NCBI GenBank assembly: GCA_005768725.1
Contig: VAFM01000002.1
Location: forward strand, 276,486 to 340,485
DNA: 64,000 bases
Reading direction: 5' to 3'
Origin: Blastochloris viridis
Lineage (GTDB): Bacteria; Pseudomonadota; Alphaproteobacteria; UBA2136; UBA6156
Shown one piece after another: positions 856 through 38,020 of the stretch. The position numbers and the translations under genes were made by a program. Positions within the stretch are counted from its first letter, which is position 1; every line of letters begins with the position of its first letter. The notes under the pieces were generated by a model, which saw nothing but the letters and a program-made list of their open reading frames with translations, had not been told where the DNA came from and searched no databases.

Positions 856-1395
856 ATGAAACCATCTCTTCTCCTGATAGCAATCCTTTGCTGCACATCA
901 ATCTCTCTCCATGCCCAAGAGCGCACCGCCGGCGGCAACCTGCAGAACGAAGCATCATGGAATGCTCTGAAAGGGATTGCCGACAGTGCCAATAACAATG
1001 CGAAATCCGCCCACATCCGCCTGAACCAGGTGGAAGCCTGTGGCAAACTGGGTATGTTCTACGCACCCGGTGCAGCGGGCAGCGATGGTCAGGGCTGTAA
1101 GGCTCCCGCCATGGGCAACCAGGGTTCCCGCTGGAGCCGCGATTCGGGCTACGCATGGGCGGGCCCGCTGCTTTTCCAGTGGGGCCGCACCTGCTTGGGT
1201 TACAGTACGGAAGTACATGTCCCCCTTCCCGTCACCTACCCGAACGCGATCATGAACGTCGTGGGCCAATTGGATGAACAACACTTTGGCGCTACCCGCG
1301 CCAACCAGTATGTCCGTATTGTGAACAACGGCACTATTCTGGCCGGTAAAACCAATATCAATGGCTGTATGAACTGGCTTACAACCGGTTATTAA
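856..1395 (+). CDS. Secreted Cys-rich protein, paralog A of a 3-member family (shared N-terminal module QERTAGGNL..EASWNAL..NNNAKSAHIRLNQV.AC)
   Basis: ATG with AAAGGAAAGG RBS upstream; signal peptide ending ..HA|QE; paralogs at 27400-27924(-) and 33129-33656(+). Confidence 0.6.
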   Translation: MKPSLLLIAILCCTSISLHAQERTAGGNLQNEASWNALKGIADSANNNAKSAHIRLNQVEACGKLGMFYAPGAAGSDGQGCKAPAMGNQGSRWSRDSGYAWAGPLLFQWGRTCLGYSTEVHVPLPVTYPNAIMNVVGQLDEQHFGATRANQYVRIVNNGTILAGKTNINGCMNWLTTGY

Positions 1396-6202: not shown

Positions 6203-6508
6203 CCCGACTTCCCTCTCGTTATGGTGCACCGTGGGCCAGATCCAATTCCAATTTCCGGTGCGATTTGTTATCCGTCACTCTACGCGTGTAGCCTTTGTGT
6301 TCCAACCCCTCTGCCCGCAAAATCCGCACGCTTGCAGGCTTTTTCAAACCCCCTGCGTTGTTACCGCAACAACCTGCAAGCACACCTCAAACAGTATCTT
6401 TAACTCACTGAAAAACGGTACGACACGGAAACTCCCTTGCCAAAGAGCCATGTCCATCGCATATCTGGCCTCGATCCACCCCACGACCTTTTGAAAAGGA
6501 CAGTCTCC

Positions 6509-6955
6509 ATGCTGAAAACCGGTTTTTCACATCTCGCCGTCTCGTATTTTTCTCCCCTTCTCAAACTCTCCGCCCGAACACTTCGCTTTGGTATGGTCGC
6601 GCTCCTGATCGTGACAGGACTACTACTAGGAATCTTCGACTTCGACGATTCTCTGGCAGCAGCTTTCATCCTCATTGCCATCGGCGTGCTTCTCGCCATC
6701 AGCGGCTGGAAAAGCCTGTGCGACTTCTCATCCGAACCTCACGATGAAGCAAAGGAAAAGAACACGCTTTTTCATGAAATCTTCCTGATACTGGCGCTCG
6801 GTTGCTTCTTCGGCGGCTTTATCGCATTCGGCAGCGGAATTCTGGGTTTCTTGAACGGCATTAGCCGCAGCATCATCCTGATCCCGATCGGTTTCGTCAT
6901 CATGGCGGCAGGCACCGCCTTCGGCATTCTTAGCCACAATTGCGCGCCAGACTGA
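6509..6955 (+). CDS. Small integral membrane protein (about 148 aa, 4 predicted TM helices), hypothetical
   Basis: ORF between ftsA and ftsZ on the opposite strand; hydrophobic segments; AAAGGA RBS; local GC about 52%. Confidence 0.45.
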   Translation: MLKTGFSHLAVSYFSPLLKLSARTLRFGMVALLIVTGLLLGIFDFDDSLAAAFILIAIGVLLAISGWKSLCDFSSEPHDEAKEKNTLFHEIFLILALGCFFGGFIAFGSGILGFLNGISRSIILIPIGFVIMAAGTAFGILSHNCAPD

Positions 6956-6972
6956 CTTTCTTCCTATTCAAT

Positions 6973-6998
6973 AAAAAGGCCGCCCTCGGGCGGCCTTT
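6973..6998. terminator. Bidirectional terminator between the membrane-protein gene and ftsA
   Basis: aaaaaggccgccc-tc-gggcggccttt. Confidence 0.6.
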
Positions 6999-7011
6999 AC
7001 ATATATCAATG

Positions 7012-8262
7012 TTAATTCGCAAAGCGCAGCAACTTCGCCATCTGCCCGGCCAACTGCGCAATTTTGCTATCCGTCACGCGCACGCGGCTCTGCTGGGCGG
7101 CCTGACGCGCACCATAAATCAGCAAGCCAACCGGAGTCGCAAAACCCGGCGTACCGGAAAGATCAGTAAGACCCTGCACGCCAACCGGACGCGCCAGACG
7201 CACACTCTTGTCCAGCACCACTTCGGCCAGATTCCGCAGACCATTCAACTGGCTGGCACCACCGGTCAGCACCACGCGGCGGCCAATAGCGGCTTCAAAC
7301 CCGCTCTGCTCAATCTTGTCACGCACCAGCTCCAGCATTTCTTCGCAACGCGGCTGGATGATTCCGGCCAAGGCACTCTTGGTCATGTGGGTCGCTTCGG
7401 CCTTCACGGTCTGGTTGTCGTCACCAACGCTCGGCACTTCAAATTCATCATCGCTTACAATGGTGCTCGCCATGGCATGGCCATGCAGAACCTTGATACG
7501 CTCGGCCGCTGTCAGCGGAGTGGAAAGCCCACGCGCAATGTCAGCGGTAATATGCTGGCCACCCAGCGGAATCACAGCGGTGTAAACAAGCGCACCTTCG
7601 GCATAAATGGCCAGATCAATGGTCCCACCACCAATATCCACCAGCGCCACACCCAACTCACGCTCATCCGGCACCACGGTGGCCAGTGCGCTGGCGTAAG
7701 GCTGTACCACAATGTCCAGCACTTCCAGGTTTGCACGCTCCACGCAACGCACTACGTTACGGATAGCCGAGGTCGCGGCGGTAATAATATGAACGTCCGC
7801 TTCAAGACGGCTGCCGGTCATGCCGCGCGGATCACGAATGTCGCTCTGGTTATCCAGCACATACTTGGTCGCTTGGGCATGGATGATCTGACGGTCGTCA
7901 CCGATCTGACGGGCACGCGCTACATCAATAACTTTAAAGATGTCGGCATCGGTAATGTCCTGCTTGTTCAGCACCACCAGACCATCGGTCATGTGGCTAC
8001 GCAGGTGCACACCACCCAGGCTCACAATCACACCCTGAATCTCCACACCGGCCATATCTTCAGCCGCGTGTACGGCTTCGCGAATCGCCGTTTCGGTACG
8101 ATCCATATCCACAATCATGCCGCGTTTCAGACCGGTAGAGATATGCTGACCGTAACCCAGCACATGCGGGTTAAAGAACTCATCCAGCTCGGCAATAAAG
8201 CAGGCCACCTTGCTGCTGCCGATGTCCAGTCCTGCCACGATGCGGTTACGGGTTTTTACCAT
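7012..8262 (-). CDS. ftsA: Cell division protein FtsA
   Basis: Actin-like ATPase, N-terminal VAGLDIGSSKV motif, 416 aa; AGGACTAAGG RBS. Confidence 0.92.
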   Translation of the reverse strand: MVKTRNRIVAGLDIGSSKVACFIAELDEFFNPHVLGYGQHISTGLKRGMIVDMDRTETAIREAVHAAEDMAGVEIQGVIVSLGGVHLRSHMTDGLVVLNKQDITDADIFKVIDVARARQIGDDRQIIHAQATKYVLDNQSDIRDPRGMTGSRLEADVHIITAATSAIRNVVRCVERANLEVLDIVVQPYASALATVVPDERELGVALVDIGGGTIDLAIYAEGALVYTAVIPLGGQHITADIARGLSTPLTAAERIKVLHGHAMASTIVSDDEFEVPSVGDDNQTVKAEATHMTKSALAGIIQPRCEEMLELVRDKIEQSGFEAAIGRRVVLTGGASQLNGLRNLAEVVLDKSVRLARPVGVQGLTDLSGTPGFATPVGLLIYGARQAAQQSRVRVTDSKIAQLAGQMAKLLRFAN

Positions 8263-31469: not shown

Positions 31470-32333
31470 TTAAGCCTTGCGACCGGCCGTCATCATGCCG
31501 AGCAGCTTGGCCAACGTGGCACGCTGCTCGCTGCGCGGCGTCACCATATCCACCATCCCGTGCTCCAGCAGATATTCGGCACGCTGGAAGCCTTCCGGCA
31601 ACGTCTGGCGGATGGTCTGCTCGATCACCCGCGCCCCGGCAAACCCGATCAGAGCCCCGGGCTCCGCCATATGCACGTCACCGGTCATCGCGAAACTCGC
31701 ACTCACACCACCGGTGGTCGGGTCGGTCAGTAACACAAGATACGGCAAACCAGCCTCTTTCAGCATCGCAATTGCGGCCGTGCTGCGTGCCATCTGCATC
31801 AGGCTCAGGGTGCTTTCCTGCATGCGGGCACCACCACTCGCGGTGATAACCATCATCGGGATCTTCTTTTCCAGCGCATACTGGGCGGTCGCCACCAAAG
31901 CTTCCCCCACACCACGGCTCATAGAGCCTGCCATGAAGCCGAAGTCCAGCGCGCACACCGCTACCGGCTGGCTCTCAATATGGCCATGCAGCGCACGGAA
32001 AGCATCGCTGTGACCACTGGCGGCGCGGGCGTCTTTCAGACGCGCCTTGTAGGCTTTCTTGTCCTTGAAATTTAGGGGGTCGTCGGCTGGCACCGGCACG
32101 GCAATCTCCACCGGAGCCTTGCCTTCGTCCTGATCCAGCAGATACTCCAGACGCGCATCGATATCCCAGCGCAAATGGTGGTTACAATGCGTGCAGCAGA
32201 ACAGGTTCTGCGGCAGTTCGGCGGCGTAAATCAGTTGGCCACAGCCGGGGCACTTTTCCCACACATCGGCGGCAACCTCGCGCTTTTTGGTGGTTTTGAT
32301 GCTCGGACGGATCAGATCGGTAAGGAACGACAT
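31470..32333 (-). CDS. accD: Acetyl-CoA carboxylase carboxyltransferase subunit beta
   Basis: N-terminal Zn ribbon CPGCGQ..CTHCNHH, carboxyltransferase domain; start at MSFLTD Met. Confidence 0.9.
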   Translation of the reverse strand: MSFLTDLIRPSIKTTKKREVAADVWEKCPGCGQLIYAAELPQNLFCCTHCNHHLRWDIDARLEYLLDQDEGKAPVEIAVPVPADDPLNFKDKKAYKARLKDARAASGHSDAFRALHGHIESQPVAVCALDFGFMAGSMSRGVGEALVATAQYALEKKIPMMVITASGGARMQESTLSLMQMARSTAAIAMLKEAGLPYLVLLTDPTTGGVSASFAMTGDVHMAEPGALIGFAGARVIEQTIRQTLPEGFQRAEYLLEHGMVDMVTPRSEQRATLAKLLGMMTAGRKA

Positions 32334-32431
32334 GCCCCCTCTATACCGCAAAATCCCCTTGCACGCACGTTTTTTAGAGTATACAGACCACCCATCCACG
32401 AGGAACATACCGCACATACGGAGCAAGACGC

Positions 32432-32992
32432 ATGTCATCCGATGCCTACTACATTTCCAAAGCCTTTCACGTCATTACCGAACGTATAGCCCGCAAAGGC
32501 GCAACCGAAAAGCTGCCCAACTGGCACCGCGCCAAACCGATCCTTCTCGGCCAGACATGCCTCCCGCCTGATCGCGAGGATCTGGCCCAGGTGCTCTATA
32601 ACCTGTGGGAGAAAAGCCTGACCTACTACCAGCAGGCCGACCTGTTTCTGCCACGGCCGGATATCCTGCACCCAGGCTCGCACGACAATCCGGACATGCT
32701 CTGCATAACCGAGCATCAGGCCACAACCTACAAGCTGCGTATCCTGACCGAAAAACAACATCAACGGCCCGGCACATGGCAGGCGTTCGACCTCTACGCC
32801 AGAACCCCGCCAAAACAGCGGCCCAGGCTCAAACAGGGTTATGGCGAAGTTCCGGTCCGGCTTCTGCAAACCATGCCGAACGTGCATATGGCTCGTGCCA
32901 TCACGCTGGCGGTGGTCATCACCGCCAACCGTCACTTGCACGGCATCTACCCCCGCACGCTGATCGCTCTGGAGCGCGAAGCCGTCTGCTAA
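32432..32992 (+). CDS. Hypothetical protein (186 aa)
   Basis: Plus-strand frame chosen over the mirror minus ORF because of upstream GGAG and the strong plus-strand terminator at 33004-33043. Confidence 0.4.
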   Translation: MSSDAYYISKAFHVITERIARKGATEKLPNWHRAKPILLGQTCLPPDREDLAQVLYNLWEKSLTYYQQADLFLPRPDILHPGSHDNPDMLCITEHQATTYKLRILTEKQHQRPGTWQAFDLYARTPPKQRPRLKQGYGEVPVRLLQTMPNVHMARAITLAVVITANRHLHGIYPRTLIALEREAVC

Positions 32993-33003
32993 AACCACCT
33001 ATA

Positions 33004-33043
33004 GGAGCCTCTCTGACATCCTGCAGAGAGGCTCTCTTTTTTT
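33004..33043 (+). terminator. Rho-independent terminator
   Basis: gagcctctctg-acatcct-gcagagaggctc then T7. Confidence 0.7.
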
Positions 33044-33128
33044 ACATATTTACAACATGTAACACCCGTTATTTGGCCTATCTGGCACGTGTCAAATGCA
33101 CGCCTCCTGAATGATGCTATAAGAGGGT

Positions 33129-33656
33129 ATGAAAAACATTGTCATCACTCTCGCTTTCGTCCTGTCATTGTTCATAAGTCCGGTTAATTACGCCCAAGAG
33201 CGCACCGCAAGTGGCAATCTCATGCAGGAAGCCAACTGGAATTCACTGAAAAGCCTGGTCGATGCCGCCAGTAAAAAAGTCGACATGATGCAGGCCCAGA
33301 TCGACAAGATTGCAGAATGTGGTACCGCAGGTATGGTGTATGCTCCCGGCGAGACCAGCACCAGTATCAATGGCTGTAAAAAAACCAATGCAACACTCGC
33401 ACCATTTGTCGTGACCGCTGCCGGGAGTAACGAGCAAGCTATCGCGCAGTGCCCCTCCACTGCCGTCCGTATCGGCTGTGCCGGTGCCCGGGATGTCAAC
33501 CTCAGCGATGGCTGCCGCGAAGAATCCTGCGGCGTGATGGGAGCCATTCCTTACGGTGCCAACGGCTGCCTGATGCGCAATACTAACGACGGCGGCCGCA
33601 AAGCCAACGAACGCGCTCTTACTCCTGTTGCCTACGCTTTCTGCACCCCCAAATAA
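33129..33656 (+). CDS. Secreted Cys-rich protein, paralog C of the QERTAGG family
   Basis: Signal peptide ..VNYA|QE; conserved N-terminal module, divergent Cys-rich C-terminus; AAGAGGG RBS. Confidence 0.6.
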   Translation: MKNIVITLAFVLSLFISPVNYAQERTASGNLMQEANWNSLKSLVDAASKKVDMMQAQIDKIAECGTAGMVYAPGETSTSINGCKKTNATLAPFVVTAAGSNEQAIAQCPSTAVRIGCAGARDVNLSDGCREESCGVMGAIPYGANGCLMRNTNDGGRKANERALTPVAYAFCTPK

Positions 33657-33673
33657 GCCGAGCAAAATCACCT

Positions 33674-33701
33674 AAAACCCCTGTTTAAGCAGGGGTTTTT
33701 G
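33674..33701 (+). terminator. Rho-independent terminator
   Basis: aaaacccctg-tttaag-caggggttttt. Confidence 0.7.
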
Positions 33702-33763
33702 ATTGTCGATAGCGAATGAAAGATATACATACACATATCTACATCCGTACACGGAGTATTATC

Positions 33764-34312
33764 ATGACGTTTGCGCGCCTTATCGCAAGGCACGAACATC
33801 AAACCGCATCGCGCCCAAAACCACCCCAAACCCACGAATACTTTGGACTCGCCGTCCATCATGTTCTCTTCTATTTAAACTACAAGGGAGACCCCCTGCA
33901 ACTTTCACGAAAGGATATTCAGGCCGAACTGACGAATACGCTGAACATCAAGTACGAAAAACGTCTCGCAAATAGCCAGCTAACCCGGCGTATCACATTA
34001 ACGTGGCACGCCATTACGCAGTACGTTTATGAGAACTCAACCTACTTCACGACCGAGGTCGGGTTTCTGGGTAATCGCAAGATAGACTTGATACTGGAAC
34101 ACCCGGACGGCACGATCGAGCTGGTCGAAATTAAGACCTATAAAAAGAAAACCAAGACCTACTGCAAAAGGACTGCCACGAAACAACTGGCGGATGCCCG
34201 CAAGTTTATTTTGGAACATTATCCGGACACCAAGCTGAAATGGACAAAGATTCTGATCCAGAATGATCTCAGTAAACCCTTCAAGTGCCAGATTCTACGC
34301 GCCCCCTCGTGA
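33764..34312 (+). CDS. PD-(D/E)xK nuclease-fold protein (YraN/Hjc-like core GNRKIDLILEHPDGTIELVEIKT), low-GC ORFan
   Basis: E..D..ExK catalytic-motif arrangement; local GC about 47% versus about 60% background; flanked by terminators (start could be 33716). Confidence 0.5.
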   Translation: MTFARLIARHEHQTASRPKPPQTHEYFGLAVHHVLFYLNYKGDPLQLSRKDIQAELTNTLNIKYEKRLANSQLTRRITLTWHAITQYVYENSTYFTTEVGFLGNRKIDLILEHPDGTIELVEIKTYKKKTKTYCKRTATKQLADARKFILEHYPDTKLKWTKILIQNDLSKPFKCQILRAPS

Positions 34313-34314
34313 AA

Positions 34315-34343
34315 GAGCCTCCCCGCAAAGGAGGCTCTTTTTT
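34315..34343 (+). terminator. Rho-independent terminator
   Basis: agagcctcc-ccgcaaa-ggaggctct then T6. Confidence 0.7.
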
Positions 34344-34409
34344 CGCAGATACCTTGTCTTAACGCCCCCTTTTCGCTAGATTCCACCCCGTAAAAGGAAA
34401 GGAATCCCT

Positions 34410-34934
34410 ATGTCCCTCAAAGACCTGCCCGCTGGCAAAGAACCCCCGCACGATATCTACGTGGTGGTGGAAAACCCCAAGCACACCCCGCACATCAAGT
34501 ACGAGGTCGATAAGGATACCGGCTTGCTGTTCGTCGACCGCTTTGCGCCGATGCCGATGGTCTTCCCGGCCCACTACGGCTTCATCAATAACACGCTGGG
34601 TGGCGATGGCGACCCGGTCGACGCGTTTGTCTACACCGACATCGCCGTGGTTCCGGGTGCGGTTGTCCGCTGCCGTCCGGTAGGCGTGCTGATGACCACC
34701 GACGAGAGCGGCGAAGACGCCAAACTGGTCTGCGTGCCGCACAAGAAGCTCGACCCGCGCTTTGAAAACATCAAGGACTACACCGACCTGCCGCAGATGT
34801 TCCGCGACCAGCTCGAGCAGTTCTACAGCCACTATAAGAACCTCGAACCCGGCAAGTGGGTCAAGATCGCCGGCTGGGGCGATGTCAAGGCCGCCGAAGC
34901 CATTGTGCTCAAGGGCATCACCGACGCCAAGTAA
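34410..34934 (+). CDS. ppa: Inorganic pyrophosphatase (family I)
   Basis: 174 aa, PPase signature DGDPVDAFV, conserved throughout. Confidence 0.92.
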   Translation: MSLKDLPAGKEPPHDIYVVVENPKHTPHIKYEVDKDTGLLFVDRFAPMPMVFPAHYGFINNTLGGDGDPVDAFVYTDIAVVPGAVVRCRPVGVLMTTDESGEDAKLVCVPHKKLDPRFENIKDYTDLPQMFRDQLEQFYSHYKNLEPGKWVKIAGWGDVKAAEAIVLKGITDAK

Positions 34935-34951
34935 CAGGCACATACCTGCAC

Positions 34952-34975
34952 AAAAGGGCCCATAGGGCCCTTTTT
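34952..34975 (+). terminator. Rho-independent terminator after ppa
   Basis: aaaagggccc-ata-gggccctttt. Confidence 0.7.
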
Positions 34976-35020
34976 GCTATCCCTAAATCATTGTCCAGTC
35001 TATCAGGTTTGCTAAAGATA

Positions 35021-35416
35021 TTAAGCGTGAGTTGCTTTGGCTTTGATCCACATCAGATGCTCCGTCAGATTAGTTTTCACCTGTTCCAGCGTCTGAATTC
35101 GCTGATGCAAAGACTCGGCAAATTGCATACACTCCTCAAGACCACGCAGACATTCCGCCTCTTCAGTAGAGTTACCATTTGCCCTAGCCTCATCTAACCA
35201 TTGAGACCACTGACGAACACGTTCCTCCGTCTCAACAAGCATGGGTCGTAATGCAAGAAGTTGATTCTCAGCCTCAGCTAAAACCTCTCTCCCCTCGGCA
35301 GCGACGAATTGCGCCTTCAGAATAAGGCGCTCATATTCTTCATCGTCGGTTTCGATATCGTAGAAGTTTTCTAACATGATCCATTGAGTCTGAACCAGAC
35401 TGAGCTGACAAGACAT
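35021..35416 (-). CDS. Acidic coiled-coil hypothetical protein (131 aa), low-GC ORFan
   Basis: GGAGTGAAGAA RBS before ATG; local GC about 46%; no recognisable domain. Confidence 0.45.
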   Translation of the reverse strand: MSCQLSLVQTQWIMLENFYDIETDDEEYERLILKAQFVAAEGREVLAEAENQLLALRPMLVETEERVRQWSQWLDEARANGNSTEEAECLRGLEECMQFAESLHQRIQTLEQVKTNLTEHLMWIKAKATHA

Positions 35417-35428
35417 TTCTTCACTCCA

Positions 35429-35453
35429 ATAAAAAGCCCCGTAACGGGGCTTT
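35429..35453 (-). terminator. Rho-independent terminator after rsmH
   Basis: On minus strand: agccccg-tta-cggggct followed by TTTTT. Confidence 0.6.
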
Positions 35454-35461
35454 CTTCACTC

Positions 35462-36457
35462 TTATCCAACCCGTTCCAGCGTCCGCAAAATCGCACTCCG
35501 CGCACGCGGGTTTACGTCAATCTCCGCATCACTCGGCACGATCTTCTTCCCCATCTTGAACTTGGCCGGGGTCTTGACGCGACCGATCTCATCCAGCTCA
35601 TCCAGACACAACCGGCGGAACGCCGCCTTCACCGCACGCTCTTCCAGCGGCTGGAACGAAATCACCGCCAGCACGCCACCCTTTTTCAAACACCACGCCG
35701 CATCCGGCAGCGCGCGCTCCAGCACGGCCAGTTCATCATTCACGGCCACACGCAGGGCCTGAAAAATACGCGCCGCCGGGTGGGCACGCTTCAGGCCTAA
35801 CTTAGGCGGATACACCTGCTCCACCGCCGCCAATAAATCTTTGGTGGTCTCAAACGGCTGAGCCTTGCGCTGCTTGACGATCAGACGCGCCAGCACACGG
35901 CTCTTCGGCTCTTCACCGTACACATAAAAGATATCGGCCAATTCTTCCTCGCGGGAGGTGTTCAGCACGTCCGCAGCGGTCTTTTTCATGCTGCTGTTGA
36001 GGCGCATATCCAGCGGCCCCTCAAAATGATAACTCAAGCCGCGCTGAGGGTCGTCCAGTTGGTCGCTACTGAACCCAAGGTCGAGCAGAATCCCATCGGC
36101 CAGCGGGGGTAACGCGCCCACTTTGCGCTTGCCGCAGGTCACGCTGTTTTGCAGTACCGGTCCGGCCAATACTTCGGGAATGGTATCGTAGGCGGCACGT
36201 ACCAGGTGCACACGGTCGCCAAAGGTTTCCACCAGCGGCGCACAGCGCACTAATGCACGGCTGTCCCAGTCCAGTCCCACCACTTCGGCCCCGCGCTCCA
36301 GCAGGCCACGGGTGTGCCCACCACCGCCCAAAGTACCATCCACCAGCAGTTTTCCGGCGGCAGGTTCAAGGGCATCCATCACTTCATGGAACAGCACAGG
36401 GACGTGCACCGTCTCGGCCGTACCGCGCGTTTCTAGCAAAGTGGAATCCCCATTCAT
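35462..36457 (-). CDS. rsmH: 16S rRNA (cytosine1402-N4)-methyltransferase RsmH (MraW)
   Basis: SAM-binding TLGGGGH motif, 331 aa, downstream of mraZ. Confidence 0.9.
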   Translation of the reverse strand: MNGDSTLLETRGTAETVHVPVLFHEVMDALEPAAGKLLVDGTLGGGGHTRGLLERGAEVVGLDWDSRALVRCAPLVETFGDRVHLVRAAYDTIPEVLAGPVLQNSVTCGKRKVGALPPLADGILLDLGFSSDQLDDPQRGLSYHFEGPLDMRLNSSMKKTAADVLNTSREEELADIFYVYGEEPKSRVLARLIVKQRKAQPFETTKDLLAAVEQVYPPKLGLKRAHPAARIFQALRVAVNDELAVLERALPDAAWCLKKGGVLAVISFQPLEERAVKAAFRRLCLDELDEIGRVKTPAKFKMGKKIVPSDAEIDVNPRARSAILRTLERVG

Positions 36458-37494: not shown

Positions 37495-37498
37495 GCAC

Positions 37499-38020
37499 CT
37501 GCACGGGGTCACCGCGAGCCGCAAGGTTCGAGGAAAGTCCGGGCACCCACGGGCCACCGGCCGGAGAATATCCGGGCTGGCGACTCCCGCCAGACCAACA
37601 GGGCCACAGAAAAGAACCACCCCAGCAATGGGGAACGGGTGAAAAGGTAGGGTAAAAGCCTACCGCCGTTTCTAGCAATAGAGCGGGCGAGAGTAGGTTC
37701 CAGAATCGCTAGGCAGAGGTGATTTTTGAGATTTGCAAAGACTGAGCACCGTAAGTGTACACGCGAGTACACGCGGAGCGGAAGGCAAGCAAAGCTCAAA
37801 AAGCGCTCTGCATAGTAGATTCTGGAGCCTACTCGAAGGTAACCTGCCGGAGGGTGCAATGCTAAATAGGGACTCCCAGTGGCGCGGTCCGCGTCCGAAG
37901 CGCAAGCCGAGGAGGGTCCGGGTTGGCAGCTTGACGCCTGACGCAAGTCAGCGCGCAGATGAATGGTGACCGATCCCGCAAGGGAGAACAGAACCCGGCT
38001 TATACGTGCAGCAGGAGACT
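37499..38020 (+). ncRNA. rnpB: RNase P RNA (bacterial type A) with about 127-nt repeat-element insertion in helix P12
   Basis: P4 core AGGAAAGTCCGGGC (37531-37544), 3' core ACAGAACCCGGCTTATACG, P1/P2 complementarity (ggtcacc/ggtgacc); terminator hairpin follows. Confidence 0.78.
37699..37825 (+). repeat. Structured repeat element, copy 1 (diverged), inserted at the tip of rnpB P12
   Basis: ccagaatcgctaggcagag..gcaccgtaagtgtacacgcgagtacacgcggagcg..tagtagattctgg; homologous to copies at 38098 and 41420. Confidence 0.7.

Follow-up and report, generated by a model that had tools for sequence, protein, structure and literature searches.

Nuclease domains of the RecB type are carried by larger proteins in AddA, RecB, AdnAB and Dna2, and occur as small stand-alone enzymes in the Cas4 family (Cas4, solo-Cas4 and ACE1/ACE2). 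Cas4-family proteins bind an iron-sulfur (Fe-S) cluster, the 'iron staple', through one N-terminal and three C-terminal cysteines, and solo-Cas4 enzymes, which are reported to interfere with plasmid DNA, have been suggested to act as immune nucleases in their own right (PMC12094033). We analysed a 64,000-nucleotide (nt) stretch of DNA assigned to Blastochloris viridis (contig VAFM01000002.1, positions 276,486 to 340,485; the whole stretch is hereafter called the window), in which the sole open reading frame (ORF) in positions 33660-34345 encodes a putative nuclease of 182 amino acids (aa). A sequence-only reading of this region had described a low-GC islet with a solitary PD-(D/E)xK protein and had pointed to such islets as frequent anti-phage candidates. 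Our analysis favours, with a probability of about 0.55, a small metal-dependent DNA nuclease that consists of one domain of the RecB/AddA/Dna2/Cas4 branch, is held in a clade-level fixed slot and serves an accessory role.

The window protein resembles the Cas4 family in standing alone and in size (160-190 aa across its family), whereas the Fe-S cysteines have no counterpart: the family alignments contain no conserved Cys column, and the Pfam model of Cas4 gave no match. A Cas4 gene would be expected to be associated with CRISPR-cas, prokaryotic Argonaute (pAgo) or a mobile element; at the window locus we saw accD, ppa, rsmH, mraZ and lpt genes instead, and the called neighbourhood contained no cas or pAgo genes. 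Unlike AddA, RecB, AdnAB and Dna2, the protein is not part of a larger polypeptide, no helicase or partner subunit is encoded near the gene, and the RecB-family QxxxY motif lacks a conserved Tyr. Phage exonucleases of the lambda-exonuclease/YqaJ/RecE type gave shorter and lower-scoring matches, and their recombinase partner (Bet/RecT) and phage context are both absent from the locus. The cognate methyltransferase expected beside a type II restriction endonuclease is likewise missing: no DNA methyltransferase gene adjoins the nuclease gene, and the nearest methyltransferase is rsmH (PF01795), an rRNA enzyme. The protein and its relatives form an uncharacterised, very small family inside a well-known superfamily, a cluster-less and helicase-less RecB-type mini-nuclease.

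Family members and predicted fold

When 1.84 billion representative proteins were searched exhaustively with HMMER, 11 matches at E <=1e-3 were obtained, of which 9 were true members (162-191 aa). The remaining two (P0005 and P0009) were rejected as false matches in which an FG-GAP/VCBS repeat, 'DFNGDGKSDxxLRHxDGTxE', mimics 'FLGNRKIDLILEHPDGTIE'; their E values of 1e-10 to 1e-4 arise by repeated matching and would be a trap for automated annotation of the family. The nine true members and three copies taken from fetched loci made up an alignment of 12 intact members, which are 19-49% identical to the window protein and all have an intact ORF. A second, word-indexed search with the 12-sequence profile recovered only 5 proteins and zero new members. 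Among 185,579 species-representative genomes there was one relative only, in a pond metagenome-assembled genome named 'Alphaproteobacteria bacterium', and searches of phage genomes, plasmids and IMG/VR contigs, the last scanned with a 3-sequence alignment, returned no relative. The distribution of the family is limited to a single small clade of uncultured Alphaproteobacteria.

The AlphaFold2 (AF2) model of the protein, built from the three closest sequences, reached a predicted local distance difference test score (pLDDT) of 80.9 and a predicted template modelling score (pTM) of 0.78, with disorder confined to residues 9-24. It contains an alpha-beta-beta-beta-alpha-beta nuclease core with four helices N-terminal to it. 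When the model was compared with known structures and scored by Z and by residues covered, the AddA nuclease domain (Z 9.2, 139 residues) and Dna2 (Z 9.1, 143 residues) were matched, together with the putative exonuclease 3l0a (Z 8.3, 135 residues), AdnAB (Z 7.5, 135-136 residues) and the Cas4-family protein ACE1 (Z 7.4, 132 residues); MGME1, RecE and Cas4 were further matches. AddAB and ACE1 were also the top Foldseek matches, a viral structure library returned phage exonucleases of the RecE, RecB and Cas4 types, and HincII was matched by Foldseek at template modelling (TM) scores of only 0.22-0.32. The similarity to RecB-type domains spans the entire domain, N-terminal helices included, so that the protein in its full length corresponds to a single RecB/AddA-type nuclease domain. 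The N-terminal region, earlier taken for about 110 aa without a detectable motif, is about 95 aa long, forms the helical part of the predicted fold and contains G28-x3-H32 and W81, both invariant.

The same comparison bears on the idea that the gene encodes a housekeeping minimal endonuclease or resolvase of the YraN/UPF0102 or Hjc type. These proteins have the minimal D...ExK core and its spacing in common with the window protein, but YraN is a core-only protein of ~120 aa with PF02021, and neither property was found here. The YraN-like structure 3fov (Z 7.0) covers 92 residues of the model and the Hjc structures (Z 5.3-6.2) cover 88-90, against 139-143 for the RecB-type domains at higher Z. 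Neither PF02021 nor NCBIfam matched, and the family is restricted to one clade and missing from outgroups. The data contradict this idea, which we regard as hardly credible, and the check for a conserved housekeeping ortholog such as YraN that the sequence-only reading had proposed came out negative.

All 12 intact members share seven residues without exception (G28, H32, W81, E98, D108, K124 and Q141) and have either E or D at position 122; the invariant G28-x3-H32 lies on helix 26-40 of the AF2 model. As judged from the alignment, the His helix, the acidic residue, the D, the (D/E)xK and the Q would make up the RecB-family motif set. The structural model supports a nuclease fold of the PD-(D/E)xK type in which the E...D...ExK active site is intact, so that the earlier fold assignment holds at superfamily level. 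By analogy with the RecB/AddA/Dna2/Cas4 branch, the ligands of a divalent metal would be H32 (N-terminal helix), D108 (start of beta-2) and E122 (beta-3); K124 would orient and activate the nucleophilic water, with E98 and Q141 as the remaining active-site residues. The expected substrate would be single-stranded DNA or DNA ends, cut exo- or endonucleolytically with Mg2+ or Mn2+, as may be supposed from stand-alone Cas4, RecE and MGME1-type enzymes. If active, the protein would be a minimal RecB-type nuclease of ~160-190 aa without Fe-S cluster or helicase and could help to show what the bare domain is capable of.

Searches against sequence families gave the following. PF12705 (PDDEXK_1) scored 21.6-21.7 bits (E 2e-4), narrowly below its 22-bit Pfam gathering cut-off; only 2 of 10 members matched it at E <=0.1, and none reached a Pfam cut-off. 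The nuclease protein had no match in NCBIfam, and PHROGs returned only weak matches, all to families whose function is unknown. In PADLOC-DB 2.0 the sole match was PDC-S27 (E 1.4e-3, 15.6 bits), over residues 100-160, which are the generic nuclease core. Profile and single-sequence searches of the PDB were non-significant (3syy, E 0.19; ST1444, E 0.4; coiled-coil and ribosomal L35 noise).

The slot between accD and ppa

The window gene is preceded by a 175-aa signal-peptide-like gene, which has two paralogs elsewhere in the window, and followed by ppa, encoding inorganic pyrophosphatase (PF00719, E 4e-50), as had been described; the wider surroundings are housekeeping genes (lpt genes, accD, rsmH, mraZ, ftsI and flagellar genes). 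The loci and proteins of relatives carry L and P numbers below. Of the 10 distinct contexts, the window included, 9 have the nuclease gene immediately upstream of ppa. The gap to ppa is 67-118 nt in the eight loci measured (window, L001/L003, L002, L004, L005, L006, L007 and L009-11) and ~70 nt in L014, and accD stands divergent on the far side wherever the contig extends that far. A family member was present upstream of ppa in all 9 clade loci with enough upstream sequence, a small sample in which the presence/absence polymorphism that the sequence-only reading had named as a check did not appear. Between these loci, ppa protein identity is 78-95%. In outgroups (ppa 65-80% identical), accD and ppa are 110-133 nt apart and the slot is empty, with one exception. 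Since the same slot is occupied in relatives and outgroups lack the gene, we regard it as an old clade-level insertion and not as a strain-level islet.

The region contains the lowest GC of the 64 kb (0.463 in the 600-nt segment starting at 33651; mean 0.583, sd 0.030), which agrees with the GC dip noted earlier. Together with the terminators on both sides and a GC content at third codon positions (GC3) of 0.61 against 0.70-0.84 for neighbour genes, this dip could be taken to mark a recently acquired foreign gene on a strain-specific, horizontally transferred islet. Synteny contradicts that account: relatives have a family member in the same slot, and their copies, at only 28-52% identity, point to a long-standing insertion. 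The GC of the nuclease gene (0.485) is close to that of local non-coding and intergenic DNA (0.464), and the protein recoded with the neighbours' codon usage would still have an expected GC of only 0.523; its K/T/I/L/Y-rich composition accounts for most of the deficit and weak codon bias for the rest. GC ranges from 0.43 to 0.62 among family members, the L005 copy having 0.62, so low GC is not family-wide. Because it matches the local non-coding level (0.46), is largely a matter of amino-acid composition and varies so widely in the family, the low GC is no foreign signature in this gene. Flanking direct and inverted repeats, tRNA genes, mobility genes and Rfam elements were sought around the gene, and only chance-level repeats and an unrelated RNase P RNA were found. 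Recent acquisition is accordingly very unlikely, and neither the recent, strain-variable islet nor the foreign composition read from the sequence was upheld; searches of phage, plasmid and viral collections also returned no homologs. Low GC plus a lone nuclease is insufficient evidence of a mobile defence islet: in this old gene with conserved synteny, the low GC stems from amino-acid composition and weak codon bias.

On the favoured account, the family would go back to a single insertion into the ancestral accD<>ppa spacer, made in the common ancestor of one small alphaproteobacterial clade. A tandem duplication would have followed, with inheritance at the slot since; the protein surface would have diverged very rapidly around an active-site sheet that remained fixed. 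In the window genome, the upstream copy (orf186) would then have lost its catalytic residues and the secreted-protein gene would have been inserted between the two copies.

The slot varies in other ways. In the outgroup locus L016 (ppa 69% identical), an unrelated 144-aa gene (2467-2901, + strand) lies in the accD<>ppa slot, and the intergenic region seems to accept different small genes by lineage. The contigs L009 (compared at 6387-7906) and L010 (at 431-955 and 1033-1593) encode an identical nuclease protein (P0011) yet differ upstream: accD adjoins the upstream paralog in L009, whereas in L010 the paralog is preceded by an additional gene of 174 aa and one of 100 aa, which is more structural variation of the slot among very close relatives. 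The mechanical accD ORF of the window begins ~35 codons upstream of its likely start (MSFLTDLIRP...), and residues 19-35 of this 5' extension align ~90% with relatives, which suggests a conserved leader/promoter region shared with the divergent slot.

Divergence and competing accounts

Pairwise rates were compared between the window and L001, the best-covered relative. The accD, ppa, rsmH and mraZ proteins are 89-97% identical, with non-synonymous divergence (dN) of 0.014-0.083, the nuclease about 43-48% (dN 0.55), the orf186 product about 26-28% (dN 0.84) and the secreted protein about 75% (dN 0.20); synonymous divergence (dS) of the neighbours is 0.4-1.2. At the DNA level, homology to both L001 and L012 breaks off at 33656 and begins again exactly at 34333, inside the terminator T-run. 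The locus is a clean natural example of extreme rate heterogeneity, with neighbours 89-97% identical, the nuclease below 50% and sharp boundaries, and such a pattern is a useful marker of conflict-driven or weakly constrained genes in uncultured bacteria. Divergence at four-fold sites is 0.61 (n=33) in the nuclease gene versus 0.22-0.46 in its neighbours; with synonymous sites near saturation and few in number, in-place fast evolution and replacement by an older allele are inseparable.

Within the 36-codon active-site core, 29 aa are identical between window and L001 (~80%), and third positions differ in 55% of the identical core codons. Such third-position change without amino-acid change argues for purifying selection on the enzyme core. 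It also speaks against the account of the gene as a weakly constrained, decaying remnant with little or no present function, like its upstream paralog. That account draws on a dN of 0.55 comparable to the neighbours' dS, on a gene GC near the local non-coding level, and on the paralog itself, which is without catalytic residues in the window and L001 and gone from L002 and L007. However, the ORF is intact in 12 of 12 members, the seven invariant residues, which include the catalytic set, persist at 19-49% identity, and ribosome-binding site, leader motif and terminator are all conserved, so that we consider decay quite unlikely.

The fast divergence, ~ten-fold that of the neighbours, could instead reflect a single-gene anti-phage or anti-plasmid defence nuclease acting in the manner of solo-Cas4, within an arms-race hypervariable cassette at an accD-ppa hotspot. 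The sharp homology breaks, the duplication, decay and loss of the paralog together with the insertion of unrelated small genes in the slot, and the seemingly different allele of L012 would fit this account, as would the plasmid interference reported for solo-Cas4 (PMC12094033) and the weak PDC-S27 match. Yet no credible known-defence family was matched, the PADLOC score being 15.6 bits across a 60-residue segment of generic core; every clade member that is informative has the gene, with no strain variation; its neighbours are housekeeping genes, with no sensor, regulator, methylase or immunity partner; and near-saturated synonymous sites make positive selection indistinguishable from relaxed constraint. 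That searches of phages, plasmids and viral contigs returned no homologs also speaks against it. We hold this account possible but doubtful. An unlikely variant is that a cluster-less relative of solo-Cas4 forms an unrecognised family of single-protein immune nucleases kept at accD<>ppa in this clade, diversified by rapid surface evolution, tandem duplication and possible allele replacement, with the dead paralog orf186 as a by-product or regulator.

Several points weigh against the preferred reading of an accessory RecB-type nuclease at a fixed slot. The residue at +4 from the invariant Q141 is not a conserved Tyr, as the RecB-family QxxxY motif would have it; all sequence matches to known families fall under curated thresholds; the AF2 model was built on a 3-sequence alignment; and the metal-ligand roles of the active-site residues are assigned by analogy only. 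Position is not absolute, since P0010 (L008) lies between cheR and fliJ in a flagellar/chemotaxis cluster and not beside ppa, and single origin and vertical descent are inferred from synteny rather than from a resolved tree. In L012 the ppa protein is 98% identical, yet a different-looking C-terminus (~20 residues visible) lies upstream of 34333, which hints at allele replacement or exchange. Much of the protein may also be under very weak constraint, as dN is so high and GC so near the non-coding level. On balance, we favour accessory, non-essential DNA-end processing or foreign-DNA degradation over a core housekeeping role; an anti-phage role is speculation.

Gene anatomy, the probable tandem paralog and neighbouring features

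The coordinates of the features are collected below.

Table 1 Features of the nuclease locus and its surroundings in the window
Feature	Position	Strand	Remarks
Nuclease gene	33764..34312	+	182 aa plus stop; predicted RecB/AddA-type PD-(D/E)xK, stand-alone
H32 codon	33857-59		
E98 codon	34055-57		
D108 codon	34085-87		
E122 codon	34127-29		
K124 codon	34133-35		
Q141 codon	34184-86		
In-frame 5' extension of mechanical ORF	33716..33763	+	probably untranslated leader
(G/A)TATAC motif	33722-33729		possible -10 element, conserved
Ribosome-binding site GGAG	33753-33756		
Upstream hairpin	33674..33699		AAAACCCCTG-loop-CAGGGGTTTT; T-runs on both strands
Intrinsic terminator of nuclease gene	34314..34345	+	AGAGCCTCC-loop-GGAGGCTCT, then TTTTTT
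orf186	32432..32992	+	probable degenerate tandem paralog of nuclease, 0.8 kb upstream
Terminator after orf186	33004..33045	+	terminator scan; ends GAGGCTCT-C-TTTTTTT
Secreted-protein gene	33129-33656	+	175 aa
Paralog of secreted-protein gene	856-1101	+	
Paralog of secreted-protein gene	27867-27613	-	
accD, mechanical ORF	31470-32438	-	
orf131	35021-35416	-	131 aa, GC 0.47
RNase P RNA	37496-38018	+	bacterial class A, 166.6 bits

The mechanical ORF (33716..34312, + strand) would encode 198 aa. Judged from the sequence, the true start is the ATG at 33764, because it agrees with the public annotation (P0001, 'hypothetical protein DI628_07185', which begins there) and GGAG(N7)ATG is kept in relatives: both GGAG-N7-ATG and TATAC occur at equal distance in L001, L002, L004, L005, L006 and L007. 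A promoter-scan site at 33738-33765, the only prediction on the + strand, overlaps the start codon and was discounted.

Terminators bracket the single ORF, as the sequence-only reading had stated. The upstream hairpin (-19.0 kcal/mol, z -4.6; 0 of 200 shuffles equally stable), which the terminator scan lists on the - strand, is predicted to end the secreted-protein gene and to insulate the nuclease gene. The downstream hairpin has a folding energy of -21.7 kcal/mol (z -3.9), and a hairpin follows the nuclease stop codon immediately in 6 of 8 loci. By these signals the nuclease gene is its own predicted transcription unit with conserved leader, ribosome-binding site and terminator.

The gene had been called solitary, a description that orf186 puts in doubt, as it is probably a catalytically dead tandem paralog. 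The upstream slot holds intact paralogs with all catalytic residues in L009-11 (profile E 2e-24) and L004 (E 1e-14). In L001, orf185 at the same position still matches the profile (E 1.4e-3, 13.5 bits; 0 of 500 shuffles as good) and has lost G28, H32, W81, E98, E122 and K124. In the window, orf186 is the ortholog of orf185 (tblastn E 1e-8), and the pair aligns colinearly with the family in hhalign (E 2.5e-4, probability 43%). Equivalents of H32, W81 and D108 are retained in orf186, R replaces E98, and E122-x-K124 is gone. Its paralogy is likely rather than proven, since orf186 alone escapes profile detection (1.8 bits, 20 of 500 shuffles as good); an AF2 model predicted from its sequence alone (pLDDT 40) gave no useful information. 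The nuclease gene and orf186 are followed by terminators with a common tail, GAGGCTCT(C)TTTTTT, and common stem words (repeats D8 and I3), a pattern consistent with the gene and its terminator having been duplicated in tandem.

The secreted-protein gene lies between the two copies in the window and L001, and both it and the upstream paralog are missing in L002 and L007. Its product is 74-75% identical to the L001 ortholog and belongs to a family of small, Cys-rich proteins with signal-peptide-like N-termini that had no match in Pfam or NCBIfam. On the other side of ppa, before rsmH, orf131 has no family match and coincides with the sole other stretch of GC <=0.49 in the 64 kb (34901-35600). 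It is missing in L001, where the ppa-rsmH gap is 48 nt, and in L012 its slot is occupied by a gene resembling the secreted 175-aa protein. This is a second variable site beside ppa and a truer presence/absence islet than that of the nuclease. Further downstream, the RNase P RNA is 523 nt long against a 367-position model and hence has sizeable insertions.
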